Source of the DNA: a candidate division FCPU426 bacterium
Lineage (GTDB): Bacteria > Oederibacteriota > Muellerivitia > Muellerivitales > Muellerivitaceae
Direction: 5' to 3'
Length of the DNA: 64,000 nt
NCBI GenBank assembly: GCA_963796105.1
Contig: CAWCKJ010000004.1
Span: 352,001-416,000 of the forward strand
Position numbers and translations under genes: made by a program. Below the pieces are notes generated by a model. That model did no database searches. It saw only the letters and a list, made by a program, of their open reading frames with translations, and had not been told where the DNA came from. This document shows, in pieces, positions 3,698 through 20,788 of the stretch; positions within the stretch are counted from its first letter, which is position 1; each line of letters starts with the position of its first letter.

Positions 3698-6600
3698 TTA
3701 GAACAAAAACTTAACTTTGCAAAAATACTGGTTTCCGGAATAATTGTTCGCTGGAATGTAATTGTCATGGAATTCAAGGTACTTATAACGGAATTCCAAC
3801 TTGGCCCCACCCCAAGGGATGTCATAGGCAAGCCCTAATCCATAATCGTTGGTTCGATAATCCACCTGGGGGTAGGTATATTGTGATTTCCAGGTTTCAA
3901 CTCCGATGTCACCCATCAAATCCACGTTCTTGACCACGTTAATCATGATGGAACCATCGTAGACCAACTGTTCAAAGAGGTTGGAAAAACTGGTGGAAAG
4001 GGTGTAAGGAGCCAAATTGTTGGACAAGGGCGAGTTGTTGTTAACGGGGAGATTTGTAACGGAACTGGAAGCGACACCTGAAACCTGATTATCGGTGATG
4101 AAAAAGAACCCATCCACGGGAGAGGTCAAACCAAGCCATTTATCGATTTTGAGTTTGGCGGTCAAGGTAATGTAGTTGTAGGTTTTGAGGTCGTCAATAT
4201 TGGCATACATATTGTTTCCATTTGCATATTTTGCGGGATCTTGACCCGAGGTGGCAGGAGACAAACTGTATGTTCCGCCGTTGTTATAAATGGGCAAAAT
4301 GAGCGGAATCCTCTCACTGGTCATTCTAAATTGGTAGCGTACATCATCGTTGACAATGTCCGCATCGTTTCTCATGGCTTCGATGTTGTTGATGTAGGTC
4401 TGACGCAGGGGATTCACGTTGGGCGCATAGTTTCCCCAAAGGTCCAACCCCCATAAGCCCTCGTCGTCCGGGTAGTAAAAACTAAGCAATTGGGTGGGTT
4501 CGACCTCGTAATAACCTTCCTGGCCCTGTTCGGCCACATATTCCTTCTTTTGGGACACGTCAAAGTTGATGATAAAGGTATCCAGGAAACTAGGCCAACT
4601 CTTCATCCAGGTCTGTTCCCTGCCGTCCCATCCCAAGTTGACCCGCCAACCGTATCGGTCGGTCTGAAGGTTGTCCACCTCCCCGATGGCCCCATAAACG
4701 TCCTGGAAATCGCTGGGATTGAAATAAAGGCCGTGGTGGAAGAAATTAAATCCGCTCATGGTAGCCTTGCTCATGAAGTCGGCGTAATTCTCACTGAGGC
4801 CGAAGTAATAAAGGGTCAGGGGATAAAAAGCCATGGAGGCCTGACCCGCGGGCGCCTCAACTGCGTTGGAATCATTTTGGAGTTGGCCTGATTGTACATA
4901 GGCGGGGCCGGGATAGACGCTTCCCGTATAAAAATGCGAGAACCCGCCCTCGAAATCAAACAAAACCGGGGCAAGGTTCAAATGGATGTCGGCTGAGTAA
5001 TCTTTCATGTCCAGCTGGGGCATATTGGGCAGGTTGCTGACCCCAAAATTGTCATTTACCCATTCCGCGGAAATCGAGGCCCTTAAAAGACTGCCGAACA
5101 AAGGTTGGTCAATCTTGGCCCCTTCCTCCCAACGAAGGCTTTGGCTGGTTGTTTCGCCCATACGTCCCACCAGGAACCACATCCGACCGCCCGGAGCCAG
5201 CCATGGGACAGTTCTCCCTACCGCGTAAATCCCGTCAAAAACCCGGTCGCTGGTGGATTGAACATTGCCTGCCGTGGGGGAATAACTGGGCACGTAGCTG
5301 ATGTTGCTCATGAAGTCATCCCAGTTCTTCGCGTTTTTATCATCATTGAAGCTCTTGATGTTCCAGGGGTTCTCGAACCGCTTGAGGGAATTGTTGGCAT
5401 AGCCGCGACTAAAATCGCCGTAGGTGGTGTCCGGTTGGTAGGCTTCCACAGCGAAGGTGGTGTCCCATTTACCTAAGTCCCCGTAAAGATCCAAAGTACA
5501 GCTGGGATTACCGATATAAAGGGAAACAGGTCCTGTGCCGTAGACACCCCATAAGTCATAGTTGGCGGATGCGTTGTCATAGGGCAAGATTCCGCCTACT
5601 CCGAGGGAAAGGGCTCCCTTCCCCCCCAGGTCCGAGTACATCCCGCACCAGATTTCCTCCAAAGCCTTTGAGACGCTCTCGGTGGCGATACCAGAAACGT
5701 TTAAGTTTTCAAACCGAGTGTTGATATTCGTGTTGAAATTCGGGATGCCCGCCGACCTATCCGCCTTTTTCCAAATAGCGTCCACTTCGTCCTGAACCGT
5801 TTTGAGGTTATCTAACTCGTCTTCCTGGGCTTTAATCCGGGGATCATCCAAGCTTAGCCGCGAGCGAAGAAAAACAGTTTCCAAATGAAGTTGTTTCAAA
5901 AGGTCCTCTATTTCCTTCCTTAAGGCGCCAGTAGCTTCCGGGAGGTTTACTGCGGGTGTGGGATTCGGGGTGACTATAGGCGAGGCGACAGGAGTAATGA
6001 CCGGAGAAGGAGCCGATGGGGTCGCGAGAGTTGGCGCAGGGGTGTTCGCGGGCAAAGGCAAAGAAGGTTCTGGTAAAGGCGGAGCGGTCAGGGGCGTATT
6101 TTCAGGCAAAGGAAGCGCTGGCGCAGGAAGTTCCGGAGCCGGCTGAACTGGAGCAGGGGTGTTCGCAGGCAACGGCAAAGAAGATTCTGGTAAAGGTGGG
6201 GCGGCAAGCGGTGCCTCCGGCATTGGCAAAGAAGGCTCAGGTAAAGGCGGGGCTGCCAATGGCGTGTTTTCCGGAAGTGGAAGCGCGGACGGGGGAAGTT
6301 CCGGAACCGATTGAACAGGCGCGGGCGTAACCGCAGGCAACGGCAGGGAAGACTCCGGTAAAGCCGGCGCGGCCAGAGGAGCATTTTCCGGCAAAGGCGG
6401 AGCGGCCAGGGGCGTATTCACCGATAGAGGAAGAGCCGGCGCTGGTTGTGTTGAAGCAGGCAATTCCGGAGCGGAATTGAGGGGCGGCAATTGGACAGGA
6501 GTTTCCAAAGGGGATGGCACGGGAGTTAACGGGGTCGGACTCGGCAACGCTAATTCAGGAGCTTCAATCTTAGCGGCGGCCTTCTCAGTGTAAAAAGCCA

Positions 6601-6814
6601 ACTCCAACCGGGTGACTATTTTCCCCTGATCCAAAACCGCTTGATCAGCGGGATCTAAAAGGCCTAAATCCGCGAGCTTCTTCACCCTTTGGTAAAGGAG
6701 TTGGTCGGGGCCGACATTTTCCATAGGATCAGCGTTAAGCAGGCTGACTCCGCCGTTCCAAGGAAAAAAGGTTAGTAAGGAAACAATAAAATATAATTTG
6801 AGGCGAAATTTCAA
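3698..6814 (-). CDS. SLH-like/long Pro-rich/coiled-coil outer-membrane beta-barrel protein, paralog 1
   Basis: 1038 aa, TTG start with AGGAG SD. LYQRVKKLADLGLL...VTRLELAFY, about 200 aa of Pro-rich repeats, coiled coil, C-terminal ...KVKFLF. Confidence 0.7.
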   Translation of the reverse strand: MKFRLKLYFIVSLLTFFPWNGGVSLLNADPMENVGPDQLLYQRVKKLADLGLLDPADQAVLDQGKIVTRLELAFYTEKAAAKIEAPELALPSPTPLTPVPSPLETPVQLPPLNSAPELPASTQPAPALPLSVNTPLAAPPLPENAPLAAPALPESSLPLPAVTPAPVQSVPELPPSALPLPENTPLAAPPLPEPSLPMPEAPLAAPPLPESSLPLPANTPAPVQPAPELPAPALPLPENTPLTAPPLPEPSLPLPANTPAPTLATPSAPSPVITPVASPIVTPNPTPAVNLPEATGALRKEIEDLLKQLHLETVFLRSRLSLDDPRIKAQEDELDNLKTVQDEVDAIWKKADRSAGIPNFNTNINTRFENLNVSGIATESVSKALEEIWCGMYSDLGGKGALSLGVGGILPYDNASANYDLWGVYGTGPVSLYIGNPSCTLDLYGDLGKWDTTFAVEAYQPDTTYGDFSRGYANNSLKRFENPWNIKSFNDDKNAKNWDDFMSNISYVPSYSPTAGNVQSTSDRVFDGIYAVGRTVPWLAPGGRMWFLVGRMGETTSQSLRWEEGAKIDQPLFGSLLRASISAEWVNDNFGVSNLPNMPQLDMKDYSADIHLNLAPVLFDFEGGFSHFYTGSVYPGPAYVQSGQLQNDSNAVEAPAGQASMAFYPLTLYYFGLSENYADFMSKATMSGFNFFHHGLYFNPSDFQDVYGAIGEVDNLQTDRYGWRVNLGWDGREQTWMKSWPSFLDTFIINFDVSQKKEYVAEQGQEGYYEVEPTQLLSFYYPDDEGLWGLDLWGNYAPNVNPLRQTYINNIEAMRNDADIVNDDVRYQFRMTSERIPLILPIYNNGGTYSLSPATSGQDPAKYANGNNMYANIDDLKTYNYITLTAKLKIDKWLGLTSPVDGFFFITDNQVSGVASSSVTNLPVNNNSPLSNNLAPYTLSTSFSNLFEQLVYDGSIMINVVKNVDLMGDIGVETWKSQYTYPQVDYRTNDYGLGLAYDIPWGGAKLEFRYKYLEFHDNYIPANNYSGNQYFCKVKFLF
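5950..6560 (-). repeat. Coding Pro-rich repeats (PLAAPPLPE / LPLPANTPAP) within 3698..6814
   Basis: Repeated PLAAPPLPEPSLP, PENTPL and TPAPVQ motifs in the translation. Confidence 0.85.
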
Positions 6815-6895: not shown

Positions 6896-7669
6896 TCAAA
6901 AAAACTCAACTTCATCGATCCAATAATCGATGGCATAGGTCCCTGCGGCATTATCAGCGGAATGAGCCCACTTCAAGTAAATAAATTCTTTTAAATGCTC
7001 AGTTAATTCGGGCGGAGTAACAGGCGAACCCCAACCCTGAAGCCGAGTCAAATCGGAGAAATTCAAGACATACAAGGTCCAATCGGCGATAGGTTTTAAA
7101 TTAGCGCCGTAATGGTTGTAACACGCATTTACGCAAATGCCGCCATCAGAGGAAGGAAGTGTGGGAGCCGTGGCGATATTAAACCGGCGTTTAAGAGCTT
7201 GGTCGGCTGTCGGACATTTGTAATAAAACTGGATTCCAGAGAAATTACTGGCATCGTACAGGTCTTTCCCTTTGAAATTAAATTGCAGATCAAATTCGGG
7301 ATAAGATGCGTCCCCCTTGTCCGTAAGGCTTCCATATACATGGGCCGCCATCTTGGTGCCGTTAGCGCCTCCCTTAACCACGAAATCACTATTGACCGCG
7401 TTTCCGGCCCAGGTCAAGGTGGACCATTCACCCGCTCCATCAAGATACAGTTTGGGGTTCCCGCTCTTGGATCCATTATCAAAATTGGAAATAACGGAAG
7501 CTTCCTTTGGAACGTTCACCTTAACACTGTTTTTTTCAGGGTTCGCCAAGCCGCGGGCCAAACTAGCGTTCTTTGAGCCTTCATTCACGAATACAGCCCC
7601 ACATCCAGCCAAAAGAAAAAGCCCCAGAACCCCAAATAAAGACAAAAGCTTGGACGAGGCCATAAACAT
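6896..7669 (-). CDS. Lipoprotein with CBM11/CIA30-like carbohydrate-binding domain
   Basis: Lipobox LAGC; ISNFDNG, YDASNFSGIQFYYK, ADWTLY..NFSDL.R..GWG, DYWIDEVEFF. Confidence 0.65.
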   Translation of the reverse strand: MFMASSKLLSLFGVLGLFLLAGCGAVFVNEGSKNASLARGLANPEKNSVKVNVPKEASVISNFDNGSKSGNPKLYLDGAGEWSTLTWAGNAVNSDFVVKGGANGTKMAAHVYGSLTDKGDASYPEFDLQFNFKGKDLYDASNFSGIQFYYKCPTADQALKRRFNIATAPTLPSSDGGICVNACYNHYGANLKPIADWTLYVLNFSDLTRLQGWGSPVTPPELTEHLKEFIYLKWAHSADNAAGTYAIDYWIDEVEFF

Positions 7670-8034: not shown

Positions 8035-11000
8035 TTATGGCGTATCCAATTTCTTCACGGCGGTCCCTAATGGCAACCCCTTGACGTAAACAAAATCAAA
8101 AACCCGCAGGGGATCTCCCTGCTTTTCGACCATGACCGCGGCCATGTAGCGGTTGTCCCTCTCCGGATGGGGCTCGCGCGGCATATTCAAGAAAAGGCTT
8201 TTCACTTTTACCATATTCCCCGCGGGAAGCTCAAACGGCCCCAGGGTCGCCAGCTCATCCAGGTAATTTTTCGAGGTGTCTATCTGGTGGAGAACCACCC
8301 CTTTCAAGTCCTCGGGCGAATGGTTGCGGATTTCCACGCTTAACGGAACCGGCACCCCAACGGAAGCTTCCTTGGGGGCGGTGACAGTCACGTCAATGGG
8401 TAATAGCCCTTCGGCTTGTTGTAACGTCGTAAAGGCTTTTCCTCCCGCAATGGTCCATTCCATGGTGGTGTAAGGACCCCGGATTCCCCAAACCAACCGG
8501 TAAAGGTCGTGCCAAAACATTCCTAGATTGGCGTTCTCCGGAAACCAGTTCTGGAAAGTCTCGTTTTCGCGGTTATAAAGTTCCAGCGGGCCGGGAGGTT
8601 CAAGGGTTTTCTGGACCCAATTGAAGTCCACCATCTCTCCCATGGCGTACATGCCGTTTTCCCTGGATAAATAAACAGGCCAATGCCGTTTCATGGCCTC
8701 AATATGTTCTCTCGTCCCCTCGTAGAGCATGATATGGTTAAAGGCCACCCCAGCGTCAATGAACATGGCTGGATCTTGGCCGTGTTGATGTCCCATTTCC
8801 CATCCCAAGGTGAACGTGAACACCGGCTTGGTAACCTTTGCCTCATCCAAGATGCTTTTCAGGGCCAGCGACACCTTGTGGGCCCTCCACCACTCGAACA
8901 AAGCCACCACCTGGGGATTTTCCTTTAATTCCACGGTCCTGGCCAGCCAGTGAATCCGATCTTGCTTTGACATAGACCAAAAATCCATGGGGCCAGGGAC
9001 GTTCAAATCCCTGACGAACTCATCCACCATCTCATACCCGGCAAAACCTGTCCTGACATAATCCAAACCTATGATATCAACCAGGGGTTCCTGATCCATT
9101 TTCCTTAGGAAATCGATGATATCCTTGCGGCGTTTTTTATCATCCAGGGAGATGAACCTAGTCTGGATGACCTCGTCGCTGTCCGGATCGTATCCCAGCG
9201 AGAAGTCGTAAGGCGCTTGCTTCCAAGCGTCGCCTTCCACTTTAAAGGTGGTCATGTACCCAGCGAACTGCAGGCCTTTCGCGTGGGCGGCCCTCGCGTA
9301 ACGGCGGCCCGTTTCCATTTCGAGGCGGTTGTAAGGAAAATCCGCCTGCACGAAATGATCCCAAATGGAGGTTTGTCCCATCAAGTCGCAGTATAAATTT
9401 GCCCCCATGAATTTCGCCCAATCAATGGCGTTGGAGGTGCTGGAGGATCCGTTTCCATCCAAAGGCGGCACGGCGCCGTTTACCAATTGCTTCCCCCCCT
9501 CCATCGTAAGCGCGGCATAGCCGGGATAAAGCCCGTGGGGTTTCAAGTGCGCGATGGTAAACGCGGATTCAAAAGTCCGGGGAACCTTCCATTGCGGGGA
9601 AGTAATGATCACCTCGGCGATGTAAGTTCCCGCCTTGGGGTTGTAGGGAATCGGCCAATTGCCGAGAAGCTTCTTCCCCTCCTGATCCTTCCTTAAATAC
9701 AACTTGGACCTGCCATCCACCATGTTAACCGGCTCCCCGTCGCGGAACACCTCCACGGATGCGTGGATATCGGAGAAATAAGTCGAATCCTTTGGATTAA
9801 CCCTCACCTCAAAAGGCACCATTTCGTAGCGAAAAAAAGTGCGAGTGGGCATAACGGCGATGGCGTCTGGAATCATCTGGGAAACAGAGGGTGCTTGGAG
9901 GACGTTCTTGGCCCTGGAGGGGGAAAGGGTGGCCTTGGCCCAGTAGGCGCCAACACTTAATAAAAGAACAATTAAAACAGCCCAGCCGATCAGGGATCGC
10001 TCAACAAAAGCCTGGTAAATCCCTTTCCAGGATTCCCAACGCGGTGCCGGCCGCAGCAAGGGCAAAAACTCGGGGGAAGGCCATTCCAAATTCGGCTTCT
10101 GGGTGTTTTCAGGAACATCAACAATATCTTTCTCATGGCTCTCCTCATGGCCGATCCCAGCCCTGGAAAGTGGCGTTGAAACCCTCCCCGAAGCCAATGG
10201 GCTGGGGATCTCATCGGCCATTTCCGGATTGAGTTGAATGGCATTTTCCTCCTCCCATTCTTCCTGGAATGGGGTTTCAACCCATTCCGTTAGGACCCGT
10301 TTCGTTTCTGAATAGGCTTCTTCCAAATCCTTTGTTTTTTTCTCTGCCGGGAAAGAATGGGCCTTATCTATTGCTGGAGACTTCCTTGAAAAATAACTCT
10401 TGCGCCACTGGTTCATATTCCAAATCAAACCAACGATCGATCGAAACAGGAACGGGAATGATGAGAAAAACCATCGAACTGCTATCAGGGAATAACGGAA
10501 GAGGAAACTAAGACCCGTCAGGATTTTTTTAACCGCCCAGGGAATAAACGAAAAAAACGGCCAAATCCAATCCTTCCCTTTTCCCGAAAGCTTTTCCAGG
10601 ATCAAACCCACACGCGGCAAATATTTTCCAGCCTCCTTAATCACACTTTTAATATTGAGAACGGTGGGCTCGGTCTTTGGCAAGCGGAAAGGCTCCAGGT
10701 TTTTCGGGGATAAAGTGCTGATATCCCCAAGCGGGACTGATTTTTCCCGGGTGAGCCTCACCACCGTTTCCACGTGGTAGGTCTGGGGGAACATGTCCAG
10801 CGGCTGCGCCCAGTCCGCCCTGTAGCCGTGTTTGGTCAAAAGGGAAAGGTCCCGGGCCAGGGTGGAAGGGTCGCAGGAAACATAGACCAATCTTTCGGGA
10901 TGGAAAGCCGTCAAATGCGCCAGAAACTCCGGCAGGACTCCCTTGCGGGGAGGATCCATGATCACAGCGTCCAGTTGCGTCATTCCCTTATCCCGCAAGC

Positions 11001-12177
11001 CCGTCAGGACCCGGCCGACGTCGCCTTCCAGGAAATCCAGGTTGTCCCGCTGATTCAATTGCGCGTTGAATTTCGCGTCCTCGACCGCGGGAGCTGATTC
11101 TTCGATGCCGACCACGTAGTCCGCTTTGTTGGATACAGCCAGGGCTAGGGTCCCAATCCCGCAATAGAGGTCCAGGAGCATCTCCCATTTCTTCTTATGC
11201 TCCGGGTCGCCGAGCGCCTCCCTGACCACGGTATGGAGGATATCCGCCTGGGGTGTGTTCACCTGGAGGAAGGACATCAGGGACACCCTCAGTCTGAGAT
11301 CGTCGATCACCTCGAAACAGTGGTCCCTTCCGGCCAAGAGGCGCGTCGTGGTCCCGAAAACGGAATTGGTCCGGGAGGGATTGATGTTTTGAAGCACGCC
11401 CACCAATCCCGGGACTTCCTCCAAAAGCTCCGCCGAGATCCTGGGGAGGATTCGGTCCAAGGTTTCTAAGATCAGGGCCGGCTTTTGAAGGCGCTCCTCG
11501 GGGGTTTCCGAGCGGGTGATGAAGGACAACAGCATTTCCCCTGTTTTTACCCCGTGCCGGACGGCCAAGTGCCTCAGGAAACCCGTGTGTTTCTTCTCCT
11601 GGTACGGCGTCAAACCTGAGCGGTCGATTTTCCTTAGGACTTTTTGGATCAAGTCGTTGACGGGATCCCCCTGGATGGGGCAGGTCTGGTAAGGAACGAG
11701 GTGATGGGAACGGGGTTCGTAAATTCCCGAGACAAAATGTCCTTCCCGCATCGAGAGAACCGGAAGGGCCTTGTTGCGGTAAGCGTAGGGGCTGGGCGAG
11801 GGTAGGCAGGGCTGAACCAGGACGTTTGAAAGGTGGCCGATTCTTTGGAAGGCGTCCACAACAAATTGGCGCTTGGCTTGGAGCTGACGGGAATATTGCA
11901 GGTGCTGCCATTGGCATCCCCCGCACTCCTCGAATACGGAACAGGCTGGAACCACGCGGTCCGGTGATCTTTTCAGGAAGTTAAGAATCTCCCCCGTGGC
12001 GTAATGATCCTTTACTTGGTTGATCTTTACGGCCACCCTCTCGCCGGGAAGGCCGCCCGGGACAAATACGGCAAAATCACGGTAACGCCCTACTGAATCC
12101 CCCCCGAAGGCGAGGGAGTGGATGTCGATCTCGATGATGTCGCCGTGGTGTACGGGTTTGACGAATTTGGTTTCCAT
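8035..12177 (-). CDS. rlmD: 23S rRNA m5U methyltransferase (RlmD/RumA family) fused to a TM helix and a C-terminal glycoside-hydrolase-like region
   Basis: N-terminal ~477 aa has TRAM, CSVFEECGGCQWQH, SFLQVN, DLYCGIG, DPPRKG, YVSC and DMFPQTYHVE. The frame continues ~900 aa with a TM segment (LIGWAVLIVLLLSVGAYW) and DIIGLDYVR. Confidence 0.85.
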   Translation of the reverse strand: METKFVKPVHHGDIIEIDIHSLAFGGDSVGRYRDFAVFVPGGLPGERVAVKINQVKDHYATGEILNFLKRSPDRVVPACSVFEECGGCQWQHLQYSRQLQAKRQFVVDAFQRIGHLSNVLVQPCLPSPSPYAYRNKALPVLSMREGHFVSGIYEPRSHHLVPYQTCPIQGDPVNDLIQKVLRKIDRSGLTPYQEKKHTGFLRHLAVRHGVKTGEMLLSFITRSETPEERLQKPALILETLDRILPRISAELLEEVPGLVGVLQNINPSRTNSVFGTTTRLLAGRDHCFEVIDDLRLRVSLMSFLQVNTPQADILHTVVREALGDPEHKKKWEMLLDLYCGIGTLALAVSNKADYVVGIEESAPAVEDAKFNAQLNQRDNLDFLEGDVGRVLTGLRDKGMTQLDAVIMDPPRKGVLPEFLAHLTAFHPERLVYVSCDPSTLARDLSLLTKHGYRADWAQPLDMFPQTYHVETVVRLTREKSVPLGDISTLSPKNLEPFRLPKTEPTVLNIKSVIKEAGKYLPRVGLILEKLSGKGKDWIWPFFSFIPWAVKKILTGLSFLFRYSLIAVRWFFSSFPFLFRSIVGLIWNMNQWRKSYFSRKSPAIDKAHSFPAEKKTKDLEEAYSETKRVLTEWVETPFQEEWEEENAIQLNPEMADEIPSPLASGRVSTPLSRAGIGHEESHEKDIVDVPENTQKPNLEWPSPEFLPLLRPAPRWESWKGIYQAFVERSLIGWAVLIVLLLSVGAYWAKATLSPSRAKNVLQAPSVSQMIPDAIAVMPTRTFFRYEMVPFEVRVNPKDSTYFSDIHASVEVFRDGEPVNMVDGRSKLYLRKDQEGKKLLGNWPIPYNPKAGTYIAEVIITSPQWKVPRTFESAFTIAHLKPHGLYPGYAALTMEGGKQLVNGAVPPLDGNGSSSTSNAIDWAKFMGANLYCDLMGQTSIWDHFVQADFPYNRLEMETGRRYARAAHAKGLQFAGYMTTFKVEGDAWKQAPYDFSLGYDPDSDEVIQTRFISLDDKKRRKDIIDFLRKMDQEPLVDIIGLDYVRTGFAGYEMVDEFVRDLNVPGPMDFWSMSKQDRIHWLARTVELKENPQVVALFEWWRAHKVSLALKSILDEAKVTKPVFTFTLGWEMGHQHGQDPAMFIDAGVAFNHIMLYEGTREHIEAMKRHWPVYLSRENGMYAMGEMVDFNWVQKTLEPPGPLELYNRENETFQNWFPENANLGMFWHDLYRLVWGIRGPYTTMEWTIAGGKAFTTLQQAEGLLPIDVTVTAPKEASVGVPVPLSVEIRNHSPEDLKGVVLHQIDTSKNYLDELATLGPFELPAGNMVKVKSLFLNMPREPHPERDNRYMAAVMVEKQGDPLRVFDFVYVKGLPLGTAVKKLDTP

Positions 12178-12573: not shown

Positions 12574-13266
12574 TCAATGCTTGACGGCGGGGGCGGCCTT
12601 GGGCGCGGTGGCGTCGCCCTCCAACCGCAAATAGTCGAGATAAACCACGACGGGCTCCGTGGCTCCCGTAAGATCCACCCAGAACTTGATAGACCGGATG
12701 TTGCTTAAATCCAGGCGGGCTTGGATCATCTTGTCCAAGGGAACATCAATGTTGGTGACTTTCTTGGGCGTCAAGGGCCCAGTGATATCGGAAAAAACAA
12801 ACCCGTGGGAATCAGCTACTTCCATATGATAAATCACAGGATGATCCTGGGGATTGAAGACATCCAGTTTCAAATCGGCGTATTCCTGCCACTCATAAAC
12901 CTTCAATTGGGTAACGGAATTGGTGTCGAGGGACATTTGGGGGCGCCATTCAACGCCGGGAGTGGGGGTGGGGAAAAACTGGCTTTGCAGGAGAAAGGTG
13001 GCTTTCGCGCAAAGCTTGCCGTGGGTCTGGTTTTCCTTGGCGGGTTCTATTTTGACGTAGCCCCCGGTCATCCAATCGAAATCGTCATTGGGATACTCGA
13101 AATCCGTGATCACCATGCTTTTGGTCAGGTTTTTGTGATGTTTGAAAATACCCCCCAAACCCAAGCCGGTCACAAGGGCATATCCCAAAGCCAGTAAAAA
13201 AACGATTCCCAGAATCCAAAGAAATGCGCGCATTTGCTTTCCTATTTTTCCAAGAAATTCAATCAA
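12574..13266 (-). CDS. Membrane-anchored protein with CBM-like (galactose-binding-like) domain
   Basis: N-terminal TM; ITDFE, EWQEYADLKLDVFNP, RLDLSNIRSIKFW, VYLDYLRLE. Confidence 0.55.
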   Translation of the reverse strand: MIEFLGKIGKQMRAFLWILGIVFLLALGYALVTGLGLGGIFKHHKNLTKSMVITDFEYPNDDFDWMTGGYVKIEPAKENQTHGKLCAKATFLLQSQFFPTPTPGVEWRPQMSLDTNSVTQLKVYEWQEYADLKLDVFNPQDHPVIYHMEVADSHGFVFSDITGPLTPKKVTNIDVPLDKMIQARLDLSNIRSIKFWVDLTGATEPVVVYLDYLRLEGDATAPKAAPAVKH

Positions 13267-13463: not shown

Positions 13464-14492
13464 CTATTTCTTGGATTTGGATGACTTCCGGACAACCAAT
13501 TGGCCGGGAACCAATATTTGCCGGGGCTTCCATTGCTCCGGCTCCTTGACCTTCTCCAGCAGGATTCGAGTGGCTTCCACGCTGATGGTCCTGTAATCCT
13601 GCCGGATGGTCGTCAGGGAATAAGGAGCTTTCGAGACCTCCGGAATGTCGTCGAAACCAACCAAGTCGATATCCTTTCCCACTTTCAATTTGGCTTTTTC
13701 CAGGGCCTTGATCGCTCCCATCGCCATGAGGTCATTGGAGGCGAAAACCGCCGTAGGTTTGTCCCGAAGCGCCAGGAGTTTTTTCATGGCTTCCTCTCCG
13801 GATTCCTCGAGGAAATTTCCGCCCACGATATATTCCGGGGGGATTTTGAGCCCATGTTTTTCCATAGCGGACTGGAAGCCTGCCAGCCGGTCGGCGGCGT
13901 TGCGCGAATTGTCCACCTGCCCGGTGATAATGGCGATCTTCCTGTGTTTTAATCCCGCAAAGTGGTCCACCACCTGGCCCACCGCTTGGATGTTATCGGT
14001 ATCCACGAAATCCAAACTTGGGTCCGAGGTCCTGTAGCCCACCAGCACGATCGGCACCCGGTTGTTCAAGATCAGGCCCAGGTCCTTTTCCTCCAGGTAC
14101 GGCGAAACCATGAGGATGCCGTCCACGACGTTGTTGAAAACCCGCTTGTAAACTTCCTGCGGGTCGAAAACCCCCGCGATGGTATTGATCAATAGGCCGA
14201 ATTGGTTTTCCTGGACAACCTGGTTGACGCCGTTCAAAAGTTCCAAGTACCAGGCGCTTTCCATGTTGAACTGGTAACCCGGCCAGGAGAAAAAAACCTC
14301 GATCAGGTTGGTCTGTTTGATCACCAGTCCGCGCGCGATGGGGTTCGGCTTGAAATGTAGCTCCTCGATGGCTTGAAGGACTTTTTTCCGCGTCTCTTCC
14401 AGGACATTCGGGTTCTTGTTCAGGACCCGCGAAACAGTCGAGATGGAAACTCCCGCCTTTTGGGCGACATCATAAATGGTGTTGACAGCCAT
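13464..14492 (-). CDS. LacI-family transcriptional regulator
   Basis: TIYDVAQKAGVSISTVSRVLN HTH; AVFASNDLMAMGA, VGFDD, LTTIRQ. Confidence 0.95.
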   Translation of the reverse strand: MAVNTIYDVAQKAGVSISTVSRVLNKNPNVLEETRKKVLQAIEELHFKPNPIARGLVIKQTNLIEVFFSWPGYQFNMESAWYLELLNGVNQVVQENQFGLLINTIAGVFDPQEVYKRVFNNVVDGILMVSPYLEEKDLGLILNNRVPIVLVGYRTSDPSLDFVDTDNIQAVGQVVDHFAGLKHRKIAIITGQVDNSRNAADRLAGFQSAMEKHGLKIPPEYIVGGNFLEESGEEAMKKLLALRDKPTAVFASNDLMAMGAIKALEKAKLKVGKDIDLVGFDDIPEVSKAPYSLTTIRQDYRTISVEATRILLEKVKEPEQWKPRQILVPGQLVVRKSSKSKK

Positions 14493-14982: not shown

Positions 14983-17553
14983 TTAACGAACGACGAGCAC
15001 TTTGAATTTCGTGTTCTTGGTCGATTGGTCGGCGTAGTGGACTTTGATTCGAACAATATAAAGCCCGGACGCGGCGTGGGAAGGCATCCAGGCGTGACGG
15101 TTTGTGTTGGCGAACTCAAGATGGGCCGTTAATTCCCCCGCGACCGTGTAAATCCACCATTCACTGCTGAGGGGCTGTTTGTCGAAAAACAGCTGGATAG
15201 CCTGTCCATTCGCGGAAACGGTCGGGCCCAGAAGCAATCCATGGCTCGATGGGTTGTATAAAGGCGTGGGAGTAATCGTGGGGGTGTTCGTGATCGTGGG
15301 GGGGAGAGTAATGGTTGGAGTGAGTGTGATAGTCGGCGTGTTCGTGATCGTAAAGGTCGGGGTGGGCGATCCCCGGTAATTCATGACCAATCCCCAATCC
15401 CAAGCGGTGGAAGGCACGGTGACGTTCATGGCACCGCCCGAGGCGGTCGCGGTGCCGGTTGAGGAAAGGGCGCCGGTTTGGGTGTTGTACCAATGGGTGT
15501 TCCAGGTGCCGTTCGTGCCGACTCCGATAAATTGAACCGTTCCAGTGAGGGCCGGGGGGGCGCCGTTGGCAAGGACATACGCGTAATTGTAGTTGCGGTT
15601 GGTCACCCAGGCCGCGATGGTTTGGGCCGACTGGAGGGCGTAGGTTTTCAACCCAGCCACACAGCCCCCAAAGACATAAGTGGTGTCCATCCAATCCGTC
15701 CCCGTGTCGCTCACGAAAAGGGTCGCTGGCCCGGCTGGCACCGGCACCGAATAGGTGGTGTTGGAGACGGCCTGGCTGTTCAAGACCTGGGTCCCATTGA
15801 GGGTGATGTTGAGAATCGGCACCCCGGGCGTGGGGCAGATGTTGCCCACCTGCACCCGGAAATTACCCGCCGCCGGGTAATTACAGATGAAAGTCGGGGG
15901 GTTGACCAAGGTGGGGTGGTAGGAGCCGTAAAGCTCGGAGGACAGACTCCCCACGCCGGGGGACAAGGTGCCGTTGGAATTTACGGTGAAGCGGTTGGCG
16001 GCGGCGACGGTTCCCCACCCCAGGGACCCCGTGACGGTGAGGTCGGCGTAGGAAGAAGCCGTGACCAGGGGTTGGTTGAAGGTGAACCCCGAATGGACGA
16101 AATCCAGCAAGGAAGCGAAGGTGGAAAGCCCCTTGTAGTTGTAATAAAGGTTTTGCGGGTCGATGTAGTCGTCCCACCACCACATGGCCCCGCTCCCGTC
16201 AGACTCGCCTAGCAGGTCTCCCCACATGACGTTATGAAACTCGATTCCGCCGGGGTCCATGGACACAGGGGCGGAGGAGGAACTGACCCCGAACTCCCCC
16301 ACGTGCACGGGTTTGGAGGGGTAACTGCCCCGGTAGTTCTCGACGGTCCCGTGGATGCCGTCTTCCATGGCGGGGGAGGAATTATAAAAGTGTATCTGGG
16401 TGTAATCGATCAAGGAGGAGTTCCAAACATTCGGGTCGAACTGGCTTTCGGCGAAACTGGTGGTGACCAGGTGCAGGCTGTCGAGCGACTTGACGTAAGA
16501 GGCCATGTTTTCAAGCCAGGCGGCCACATCGGCTTGCACCGTGACGCTGGAGGTGTAATTGTCAGTCCACTCGATCTCATTGGCCAATTCCCAACACAGG
16601 GAAGGGTCATAGCCCCAGCGGGCCACGCAATAGCGCAGGTGCTGTTTCCAATAACTGATGGCGGTGGGGTTCGTGAAAAAATCCGTGGTGGTGGAACAGG
16701 GCCCCCCGTTGGTGCTGTTGTAGGGGCTTTGGGCCCAATTGGGATTGACGGTGGAGGAGACTGACCCGTGGTTCAAGAGGCACAGTTCCACCACGATGCC
16801 GTTGGTCCGGGCCTTTTCCAGGTCATAATCCAGCCGCCAGGCGTCGTACTGATAATAGGAGTAATTCCCCAGGCCCGGGGTGGAGTTTGGGTTCGTCCAC
16901 TCGATCTCGTGGTACCAGGGGCACATCCAATAACGGGCGAAATTTGCCCCCTGGGAGGACATCTTGGGAATCCACTGGTCGTAATCGAAGGTTCCCCCTC
17001 CGTAGTTGTCTTCATAGTCCCCCCAGCCCACGTCCTCCCCGATGGGAATGAATTGGGTGTTGTCGTCGTATTGGAAATAGCGTGGATCGGATGAAATCTT
17101 CGGAAAACCCTTGAGCGTGGAAGCGTTGCAATTGAAAGTTTGAGGGCCGTAGGTCCCGGTTCCCGACCCCGAATCCACCGCAGTCAGGTTATAGGTCCAG
17201 GTGCCGGTAGCGTTGGGGGAAAACCGTATCTTCCAGACGGGCGAACCGCTGGAGGTTAAAACCTCGGGCGGCCCCGAGCGGGTATAGGCCTGGTAATAAA
17301 ACCCATAGGCGGTGATGGCCTGAGAACCATTGGTGAAGACACCGTAAACGTTGATCTGGGAGGGGTTGTAAGGGTTGCCGTAGGTTGTCCCGGAAAGGGT
17401 AAAGGTCAGCTCAAATTTATCCAGGCGTTGGATGCTAGTGGAACTGGGGGTGACGCCGGTGAATACAGGCGAGGCCAGCGCTGGGTAAGTGAGGAAAGCC
17501 AGGTATGCAGTTAAGAGAGTCCGCGAAACAGAACGCACTAAAATCAAATTCAA
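14983..17553 (-). CDS. Secreted glycoside hydrolase (DUF5060-like N-terminus, GH5/clan-A-like barrel), T/P linker, C-terminal Ig/sorting-like domain
   Basis: NPYNP...GFY...WKIRFSP (DUF5060-like); RY.VARWG...WELANE (acid/base) and VGEFG (nucleophile); TPT repeats; IYTVAGEL...ASGLYIVRI. Confidence 0.8.
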   Translation of the reverse strand: MNLILVRSVSRTLLTAYLAFLTYPALASPVFTGVTPSSTSIQRLDKFELTFTLSGTTYGNPYNPSQINVYGVFTNGSQAITAYGFYYQAYTRSGPPEVLTSSGSPVWKIRFSPNATGTWTYNLTAVDSGSGTGTYGPQTFNCNASTLKGFPKISSDPRYFQYDDNTQFIPIGEDVGWGDYEDNYGGGTFDYDQWIPKMSSQGANFARYWMCPWYHEIEWTNPNSTPGLGNYSYYQYDAWRLDYDLEKARTNGIVVELCLLNHGSVSSTVNPNWAQSPYNSTNGGPCSTTTDFFTNPTAISYWKQHLRYCVARWGYDPSLCWELANEIEWTDNYTSSVTVQADVAAWLENMASYVKSLDSLHLVTTSFAESQFDPNVWNSSLIDYTQIHFYNSSPAMEDGIHGTVENYRGSYPSKPVHVGEFGVSSSSAPVSMDPGGIEFHNVMWGDLLGESDGSGAMWWWDDYIDPQNLYYNYKGLSTFASLLDFVHSGFTFNQPLVTASSYADLTVTGSLGWGTVAAANRFTVNSNGTLSPGVGSLSSELYGSYHPTLVNPPTFICNYPAAGNFRVQVGNICPTPGVPILNITLNGTQVLNSQAVSNTTYSVPVPAGPATLFVSDTGTDWMDTTYVFGGCVAGLKTYALQSAQTIAAWVTNRNYNYAYVLANGAPPALTGTVQFIGVGTNGTWNTHWYNTQTGALSSTGTATASGGAMNVTVPSTAWDWGLVMNYRGSPTPTFTITNTPTITLTPTITLPPTITNTPTITPTPLYNPSSHGLLLGPTVSANGQAIQLFFDKQPLSSEWWIYTVAGELTAHLEFANTNRHAWMPSHAASGLYIVRIKVHYADQSTKNTKFKVLVVR

Positions 17554-19423: not shown

Positions 19424-20788
19424 TTAAAACAGCCGGTAAATCCCCGACAAGAAGGATGCGGGCAGGACCATATCCAAAACCAGTTTCGCGTTGAGCAGGA
19501 TAATCACCGCCGTCACCGTCCAGCCGAGGATTTTAACCCAGACCGGGTTGACGAATTCCCCCATCTTTGACTTGTCGCCGGTGAAGCGCATCAGGGGCCA
19601 GACCGCGAAGCCCAATTGCACGGAAAGCACGACCTGGCTTGCGATAAGCAGGTCCGTGGTCTTGGACTCGCCGAAATAGCCGATCACGCAAACGGCCGGT
19701 ACGATGGCCAAGCCCCGCGTGATCAACCGGCGAAGCCAGGGCCTCAGGCGGATGTTCAGGAAACCCTCCATGACGACCTGCCCCGCGAGGGTTCCGGTCA
19801 AGGTGGAATTTTGGCCCGAGGCCAGCAGGGCGACCGCGAATAGGACGCCAGCCACCGACACACCCAAGAGGGGGCTTAACAACTTATAAGCATCCTGTAT
19901 TTCCCCCACCTCCTGGTGTCCCGACCGGTAAAAGACAGCCGCCAGAACGAGGATCGCGCAGTTGACGAACAAGGCGCAAGTGAGCGCGGTGGTGGAATCA
20001 ATCGTCGCGAACTTGACGGCCTCGCGCTTCCCGCCGGGGCTGTTTTCGTATTTCCTCGTCTGCACGATGGAGGAGTGCAGGTACAGGTTGTGCGGCATGA
20101 CGGTAGCGCCGAGGATGCCGATGCTCACGTAAAGCATGCCCGGATTCCTGAGGATTTCCGGGCTGGGGAGGAACCCCAGCATCACCCCCGTGAGATCGGG
20201 CCTTGACCAGAAAATCTCGGCCCCGAAACAGAGGCTGACTGTGGCGATCAGCGTGACCACCAGCGCCTCGACGTAGCGGAAGCCCTTGTTCTGGAGGTAA
20301 AGCACCGCCATCACGTCCGCCGCTGAGATGGCGCATCCCCAGACCAGCGGTATGCCGAAGAGCAGCTGGAGCGCGATGGCGGAACCCACCACTTCCGCCA
20401 GGTCGCAGGCGGCGATCTGGATCTCGCAGAGCGCCCAAAGGAACCAGACCATCGGCCTCGGGTAATGGTCCCGGCAGGCCTGCGCCAGGTCCCGGCCGGT
20501 TGCGATGCCAAGCTTCACGCACAAGTGCTGGAGCAGGACCGCCATCAGGTTGGAGACGAATATAACACTTAGCAGGGTATAGCCGTATTTCGCGCCCCCG
20601 GCCAGGTCCGTCGCCCAATTTCCCGGGTCCATGTAGCCCACGGCCACCAAAAACCCCGGACCCGCGAAAGCGAGCATCTTGCGCCAGAAAGAGGCGGTTA
20701 CCGGCACGAGGACGCTTCGGTTCACTTCCGGCAGGGAGGATTCTCCCGCCTCCTTGCGCCAGGGGGTTTTGGGTTGGGATGAAAGCAT
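19424..20788 (-). CDS. mntH: Nramp-family divalent metal (Mn2+/Fe2+) transporter
   Basis: GYMDPGNWATD, GATVMPHNLYLHSS, GQNSTLTGTLAGQVVMEGF. Confidence 0.96.
   Translation of the reverse strand: MLSSQPKTPWRKEAGESSLPEVNRSVLVPVTASFWRKMLAFAGPGFLVAVGYMDPGNWATDLAGGAKYGYTLLSVIFVSNLMAVLLQHLCVKLGIATGRDLAQACRDHYPRPMVWFLWALCEIQIAACDLAEVVGSAIALQLLFGIPLVWGCAISAADVMAVLYLQNKGFRYVEALVVTLIATVSLCFGAEIFWSRPDLTGVMLGFLPSPEILRNPGMLYVSIGILGATVMPHNLYLHSSIVQTRKYENSPGGKREAVKFATIDSTTALTCALFVNCAILVLAAVFYRSGHQEVGEIQDAYKLLSPLLGVSVAGVLFAVALLASGQNSTLTGTLAGQVVMEGFLNIRLRPWLRRLITRGLAIVPAVCVIGYFGESKTTDLLIASQVVLSVQLGFAVWPLMRFTGDKSKMGEFVNPVWVKILGWTVTAVIILLNAKLVLDMVLPASFLSGIYRLF

Follow-up and report, generated by a model that had tools for sequence, protein, structure and literature searches.

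Why should the gene for an RNA methyltransferase run on, in one open frame, far beyond the end of the enzyme? The gene in question lies in a stretch of 64,000 nucleotides (nt) from a candidate division FCPU426 bacterium (assembly GCA_963796105.1, contig CAWCKJ010000004.1, positions 352,001 to 416,000 of the forward strand), here called the window. It occupies 8035..12177 on the minus strand, starts with ATG, ends with TAA and encodes 1380 amino acids (aa) in a single open frame, as an initial annotation made from the letters alone had proposed. The product consists of RlmD (residues 1-478), a linker (479-726), a hydrophobic segment (727-749) and a three-domain module of about 630 aa. The coordinates and motifs given in that annotation proved correct. 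Pfam finds no match past residue 477 of the protein. We conclude that this is a real, old and selected gene, in which a cytoplasmic RlmD is followed by an internally signalled, predicted exported GHL10-like enzyme. Coordinates below are positions in the window, and the features described lie on its minus strand unless another locus is named.

The first half is an RlmD/RumA-type 5-methyluridine (m5U) RNA methyltransferase module (10744..12177), identified by TIGR00479, by Pfam and by alignment with RlmCD 5xj1. Its end at about nt 10744 is where the initial annotation had placed it, near 10745. The rumA equivalog model TIGR00479 scores 401.4 bits against a cut-off of 183.55 and aligns residues 24-470 with model positions 3-432. 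The TRAM domain (PF01938, E 1.2e-11) spans residues 10-65 (11983..12150), and the Pfam domain tRNA_U5-meth_tr covers residues 309-477. The closest solved chains are those of Streptococcus pneumoniae RlmCD 5xj1 (E 1.7e-66 over residues 12-476) and Escherichia coli RumA 1uwv (E 4.2e-41).

The motifs of the enzyme are intact, as had been claimed for TRAM, the cysteines, the S-adenosylmethionine (SAM) motif and the catalytic residues. Cysteines stand at positions 79, 85 and 88 (C79-x5-C85-x2-C88) and at 166, and are retained in relatives. These four are presumably the ligands of a [4Fe-4S] cluster, as in E. coli RumA. The SAM motif DLYCGIGT (D336-T343), DPPR (408-411), C435 in YVSCD and E470 in HVETV are all present. 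YVSC435D and HVE470TV line up with the same motifs of RlmCD 5xj1, for which chains with a Glu-to-Gln mutation mark the glutamate. Nowhere else in the genome does TIGR00479 exceed its cut-off; the four further matches are generic methyltransferase domains. This half is expected to methylate U1939 of 23S ribosomal RNA; the sequence does not separate a specificity for U1939 from a dual U747/U1939 specificity.

The other end of the protein, the tail, is without a family match in Pfam and NCBIfam. A search of solved structures with the single sequence and with a profile returned nothing significant, the best match being a segment of glycoside hydrolase (GH) family GH29 at E 0.064. An AlphaFold2 model was built from an alignment of 22 members of the tail family, referred to as A1, and reached a predicted local distance difference test (pLDDT) value of 89.4 and a predicted template modelling score (pTM) of 0.89. 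The model consists of an N-terminal beta-sandwich at residues 760-875 (9553..9900; strands at model residues 5-116), a GHL10-like (beta/alpha)8 barrel at residues 878-1265 (8383..9546) and a C-terminal beta-sandwich at residues 1266-1368 (8074..8382; model strands 502-609). The sandwich-like flanks that the initial annotation had suspected thus appear on both sides of the barrel. Foldseek matches three-domain glycosidases of families GH66, GH2, GH5 and GH13 at E values of about 1e-13, with whole-model template modelling scores (TM-scores) of about 0.3. The best fold match of the barrel is the solved GHL10 member Cwp19. Leads from a protein atlas were GHL10 (0.88), DUF4434 (0.86) and GH66 (0.81).

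The relationship to GHL10 was examined by profile-profile comparison. A second alignment, A2, holds eight true GHL10 domains from related genomes, and hhalign aligned A1 with A2 at a probability of 96.3% and an E value of 1.7e-9 over 248 columns. An unrelated lipoprotein used as a control gave 0.16%, and the DUF4434 lead was rejected at only 5.4%. The GHL10-like barrel of the initial annotation is supported by these values, and the DIIGLDYVR motif named there is present. Its core GLDYVR (G1037-R1042; 9052..9069) lies at the end of barrel strand 4, as placed by A1 and by the GHL10 profile alignment. In that alignment GLDYVRT pairs with HLDYIRY of GHL10, and the tyrosine column of strand 6 is paired as well. 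Residues D1039, Y1040 and R1042 are invariant in the 22 members (A1 columns D280, Y281 and R283). The pair D1039-Y1040 and the equally invariant Y1152 fall on the LDY and MxY columns of GHL10, an assignment made by sequence profile alignment only. Further invariant residues of A1 are E893, WW1096/1097, H1132, D1135, D1141, D1184 and WHD1222-1224.

The structure paper on Cwp19 (PMC5765458) names as key GHL10 residues Asp196-Tyr197, which follow strand 4, and Tyr297, which follows strand 6. The same paper describes a peptidoglycan-degrading activity and export behind a signal peptide (PMC5765458). Judged from the profiles, the tail is a divergent sister of GHL10, remotely homologous to it, and a putative glycosidase. 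The family is small: when 1.84 billion representatives were searched exhaustively with a profile, only 255 proteins came up at E <=0.001.

Between the two halves lies the only strong hydrophobic segment of the protein (residues 729-747, Kyte-Doolittle 2.17), close to where the initial annotation had drawn a single transmembrane (TM) span (about 9940-9995). The signal-peptide-like segment as a whole, with its A-K-A motif, covers residues 727-749 (9931..9999) and was delimited by Kyte-Doolittle hydropathy, by the residues at -3 and -1 and by the length of the core. We compared it across 52 full-length fused proteins. Lysine or arginine stands at the position aligned with residue 728 in 40 of the 52. 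The uncharged hydrophobic core is 14 residues long in 35 and ranges from 14 to 19, and glycine or proline occurs at -7 to -4 in 46. Position -1 is alanine in all but one (51/52), and position -3 is alanine in 45, glycine in four and serine, threonine or valine in one each. In shape the segment resembles a cleavable signal peptide more than an anchor, and as a stable span it would be short. Signal peptidase I is predicted to cut after A749. The initial annotation had suggested a membrane tether that links glycan binding on the outside to RNA methylation, whereas a cut at this site would part the two halves once the tail is exported.

The orientation of the segment can be approached through the relatives of the tail that stand alone. 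Among 56 distinct stand-alone homologues the N-termini are signal peptides, lipoboxes (11 by pattern) or anchors. The tail module is predicted to be extracytoplasmic because its stand-alone forms start in this way. With the tail outside and RlmD necessarily cytoplasmic, the segment would therefore run from inside to outside. A methionine lies within 35 aa upstream of the segment in only 19 of the 52 fused proteins, and none is conserved (only Met codons were counted). Because no methionine is conserved there and the linker is always open, the sequences argue that ribosomes reach the tail only by reading on from RlmD.

The linker (10000..10743) is variable by column conservation, by spread of length and by the ratio of nonsynonymous to synonymous substitution rates (dN/dS). 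A semi-conserved LEPFRLPK directly follows RlmD, and a low-complexity spacer comes next. In the alignment of the 52 proteins column conservation is 0.13-0.49 across the linker as against about 0.8 in both domains. Its length ranges from 88 to 409 aa, and the frame is open in 52/52. The initial annotation had argued that some 250 aa of open linker spoke against simple read-through; indeed, an opening of this length by chance is very unlikely. The aromatic and basic amphipathic stretch that it described is found at residues 537-595 (10393..10569; Kyte-Doolittle peak 1.42), where the hydrophobic moment is 0.37-0.49 compared with 0.07-0.15 in the TM segment. This stretch is confined to the window protein and its close kin, and many relatives are without a hydrophobic peak there. 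The acidic linker likewise has its counterpart in a spacer with a net charge of -9 over residues 621-660.

The age of the fusion was assessed in 40 related genomes searched with each half separately, a check that the initial annotation had recommended. In 21 of the 24 genomes of the same family a single open frame of 1153-1527 aa holds both halves (a contig end cuts off the shortest), and the order-mate G025 has a fused frame of 1243 aa. Two genomes of the family (G005 and G012) carry the halves on fragments that end at contig edges, and in a third, which is 80% complete (G018), neither half was found. The fusion is common to the family and to an order-mate, and the recent loss of a stop codon, which had been offered as an alternative, is not borne out. 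Against a relative of the same genus dN/dS is lowest in the tail (0.040) and RlmD (0.062), higher in the hydrophobic segment (0.136) and highest in the linker (0.378); the values are rough, as they were obtained by the Nei-Gojobori method with dS >1 (saturated). Purifying selection is strong on both halves and relaxed on the linker. In a look-up of sequencing reads one DNA run contained 0.06 of the sampled words, and no RNA run was listed.

Matches to the tail in a large protein collection comprise 59 proteins of 759-2415 aa, nearly all of which have a TRAM and a U5-methyltransferase domain. P0059 (943 aa) and P0068 (475 aa), from one contig, represent a relative's fused gene that is frameshifted inside the tail, and the gene call of P0061 (721 aa, on an 82-kb contig) starts inside the linker. 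Outside the order of the window the tail stands alone in proteins of 500-830 aa, in records labelled Firestonebacteria, Goldbacteria, Zixibacteria, Coatesbacteria, Elusimicrobia and Spirochaetia, among others. An RlmD match accompanies the tail only in the clade of the window and in a family called f9, among 91 tail-domain frames (duplicates included). No stand-alone tail gene was seen to adjoin rlmD in the sampled genomes of other families. Other long RlmD proteins are sporadic single clusters with ComEC/metallo-beta-lactamase, Maf, PHP, trypsin-like protease or outer-membrane-efflux domains (P0091-P0106). The same set includes forms of about 800 aa in Paenibacillus. The fusion described here is the only large and conserved RlmD fusion in that search.

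The f9 proteins (G032 and G038; L021:1855-5367 on the plus strand and L022:123-3566 on the minus strand) carry an RlmD-like head in frame before the tail, about 24% identical to the RlmD of the window. These heads keep TRAM and the four cysteines; the SAM motif is deleted, DPPR has become HTKS or HSRN, VSCDP has become VTESA or VAESA, and HVE has become GLR or GMR. Pfam recognizes TRAM only. No other RlmD was found with the window query in the two genomes, which are 89% and 83% complete. By its motifs the f9 head appears catalytically dead, and it is still under constraint, as the two heads are 67% identical, compared with 74% for the tails. The loss of catalysis fits the mild phenotype of an rlmD deletion in E. 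coli, as given in PMC7056703. The head ends 12 residues from an 18-residue hydrophobic core, which is without an A-x-A motif.

The fork between the f9 pair and the main fused clade is unresolved in a tree built from 80 tail domains. An approximately unbiased (AU) test does not reject the grouping of all fused tails in one clade (p 0.629), and the constrained tree is 5.4 log-likelihood units better. A single ancient fusion is compatible with the data, not proven by them. A further protein, P0113 (1102 aa), has the tail from residue 481 behind a 480-residue head without a Pfam match. The likeness of this head to the f9 head is faint (E 0.001 in a two-sequence comparison), and P0113 may be a third, more decayed fused lineage.

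How would such a protein work? We consider it probable, though well short of certain, that the chain is cleaved at A-K-A and that its halves act independently, and among the mechanisms weighed this is the likeliest. RlmD would fold in the cytoplasm while the emerging hydrophobic segment brings the chain to the Sec translocon, and the tail would be threaded out across the inner membrane. Signal peptidase I would cut after A-K-A, leaving a mature hydrolase that starts near T750 and an RlmD that retains the linker and a short hydrophobic tail. The substrate of the released hydrolase would be a glycan of the envelope or the periplasm, for which the peptidoglycan-type substrates of Cwp19 offer a comparison. 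A single read-through of rlmD into the gene of a secreted protein downstream most likely created the fusion and made the old signal peptide internal, and the fused gene would persist because the tail lacks a start site for translation. The data require no coupling between the halves beyond obligatory co-expression.

Several observations weigh against this account. The fold matches of the tail are tied among several glycoside-hydrolase families, and the GHL10 model of Pfam (PF02638) misses the window protein, all 22 members of A1 and the loci in six-frame searches of the genomes. A second hydrophobic peak of at least 1.6 occurs early in the linker in 20 of the 52 proteins and is absent from the others; as a membrane span this peak would reverse the topology. 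The core of the window's own segment is, at 19 residues, the longest of the 52 and long enough for a stable anchor, and for this protein in particular an uncleaved anchor is less easily dismissed. In addition, the constrained but dead head of f9 is hard to explain as a mere passenger. These last two points lead to the main alternative, an uncleaved bitopic protein of the inner membrane in which an RlmD or RlmD-derived head cooperates with a periplasmic glycosidase-like tail. An envelope glycan might then, through its state, control RNA binding or ribosome maturation at the membrane, or the tail might be under the control of the head. The f9 head has lost the SAM motif, DPPR, Cys and Glu while keeping TRAM and the four Cys, is nearly as conserved as its tail and sits directly on the membrane segment, and a long flexible linker could serve as a tether. 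However, the segment in the clade of the window has the dimensions and the -3 and -1 residues of a cleaved signal peptide, an unconserved linker of such uneven length would be a poor conduit for a signal, and stand-alone tails work without a head in many phyla. We rate the bitopic protein at roughly one chance in four, and it stays a serious rival mainly because of the f9 head. More specifically, the RNA-binding Fe-S head derived from RlmD may gate or time the export or activity of a periplasmic glycosidase, or report the state of the envelope to ribosome maturation. We regard this as rather unlikely, although a functional unit of head and tail would explain the selection on the f9 head after its methyltransferase chemistry was lost.

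The remaining alternatives concern the reality of the long frame. If the tail were translated separately from a start inside the linker, the frame would overstate the real protein; the gene call of P0061 and the methionines at residues 588 and 653 of the window protein point that way. The scarcity of upstream methionines does not, in a count confined to Met codons. A fast-evolving linker should moreover tolerate stops and frameshifts, yet it is open in all 52 proteins and in the 21 genomes of the same family, and we hold separate translation to be quite improbable. Less probable again is an artefact or a decaying gene, produced by an assembly or sequencing error or by read-through into the next gene after rlmD had recently lost its stop codon. 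The frameshift between P0059 and P0068 shows that errors or breaks do occur; the same architecture nonetheless recurs in independently assembled genomes across the family and the order, with dN/dS near 0.05 in both halves. Sequencing error, pseudogene status and recent stop-codon loss are excluded by the conserved fused frame and the selection on it.

A full-text literature search found no paper describing a fusion of RlmD with an internal signal and an exported enzyme. Public annotation of these proteins of 1200-1500 aa reads 'RlmD' only and hides an exported enzyme family for which there is no Pfam model. Cleavage between the halves would make the product a natural polyprotein that signal peptidase processes. 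Without cleavage it would form a physical link between ribosome maturation and the cell envelope, and the dead but conserved f9 head makes this joined form testable. New here are the GHL10 profile test with its controls, the measurements on the signal peptide, the selection figures, the test for a single origin and the conserved neighbours.

Directly downstream of the fusion lies a gene for a predicted lipoprotein of 257 aa with the lipobox LLAGC (6896..7669). It was found downstream of the fusion in 21 relative loci by tblastn (duplicates included) and extracted from 16 distinct relatives, and C23 does not vary among the 17 proteins aligned, one of which is that of the window. The lipoprotein has no match in Pfam or NCBIfam; weak leads from the protein atlas were CBM30 and galactose-binding-like modules (0.91). 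Next comes a protein of 1038 aa with proline-rich repeats and no Pfam or NCBIfam match (3698..6814), whose position downstream of the fusion is conserved by synteny. This protein has a signal-like N-terminus and about 200 residues of proline-rich repeats (PLPE.., APPLPE..). The C-terminal part is rich in aromatic residues and has Phe as its last residue, and by eye the protein recalls an outer-membrane barrel with a periplasmic spacer.

Upstream of the fusion, and on the same strand, are an N-terminally anchored protein of 230 aa without a family match (12574-13266) and a LacI-family regulator (13464-14492). Both recur upstream of the fusion in four relative loci. A scan for promoters and terminators gave counts below the shuffled expectation; it placed one promoter-like site upstream of the gene start and none on the coding strand of the linker, and neither result was used as evidence. 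Further along the minus strand are a protein of 856 aa (14983-17553), which has DUF5060 at its N-terminus (E 1.8e-12) and, at its C-terminus, a match below threshold to a type IX secretion system (T9SS) sorting domain, and a metal transporter of the Nramp family (19424-20788; E 2.8e-133).

Each part of the protein has a known counterpart. Like RlmD (RumA) of E. coli (1uwv/2bh2) and RlmCD of S. pneumoniae (5xj1), the first half has TRAM, central and SAM methyltransferase domains, and it shares with them the catalytic Cys in VSC(D/N), the Glu in HVETV and the four Cys of the RumA type. The solved RumA and RlmCD are soluble proteins of 433-454 aa, whereas the window protein runs on for 900 residues through linker, signal-like segment and predicted exported module. 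The segment has the positive n-region, short h-region, helix breaker and A-x-A of the Sec signals cut by signal peptidase I. What sets the predicted signal apart from an ordinary Sec signal is its position, about 730 residues into the chain and after a folded cytoplasmic enzyme. In the comparison with GHL10 proteins such as Cwp19 of Clostridioides difficile (5oq2), LDY(I/V)R at strand 4 and (M/L)xY at strand 6 of the tail align with the GHL10 positions, but the tail family differs from them in its beta-sandwiches on both sides of the barrel and in its own set of invariant residues. The C-terminal domain of PgaB (GH153) and three-domain glycosidases such as GH66 dextranases are also comparable, with no sequence relation found; the layout of sandwich, barrel and sandwich is shared with the Foldseek entries of GH66, GH2, GH5 and GH13.

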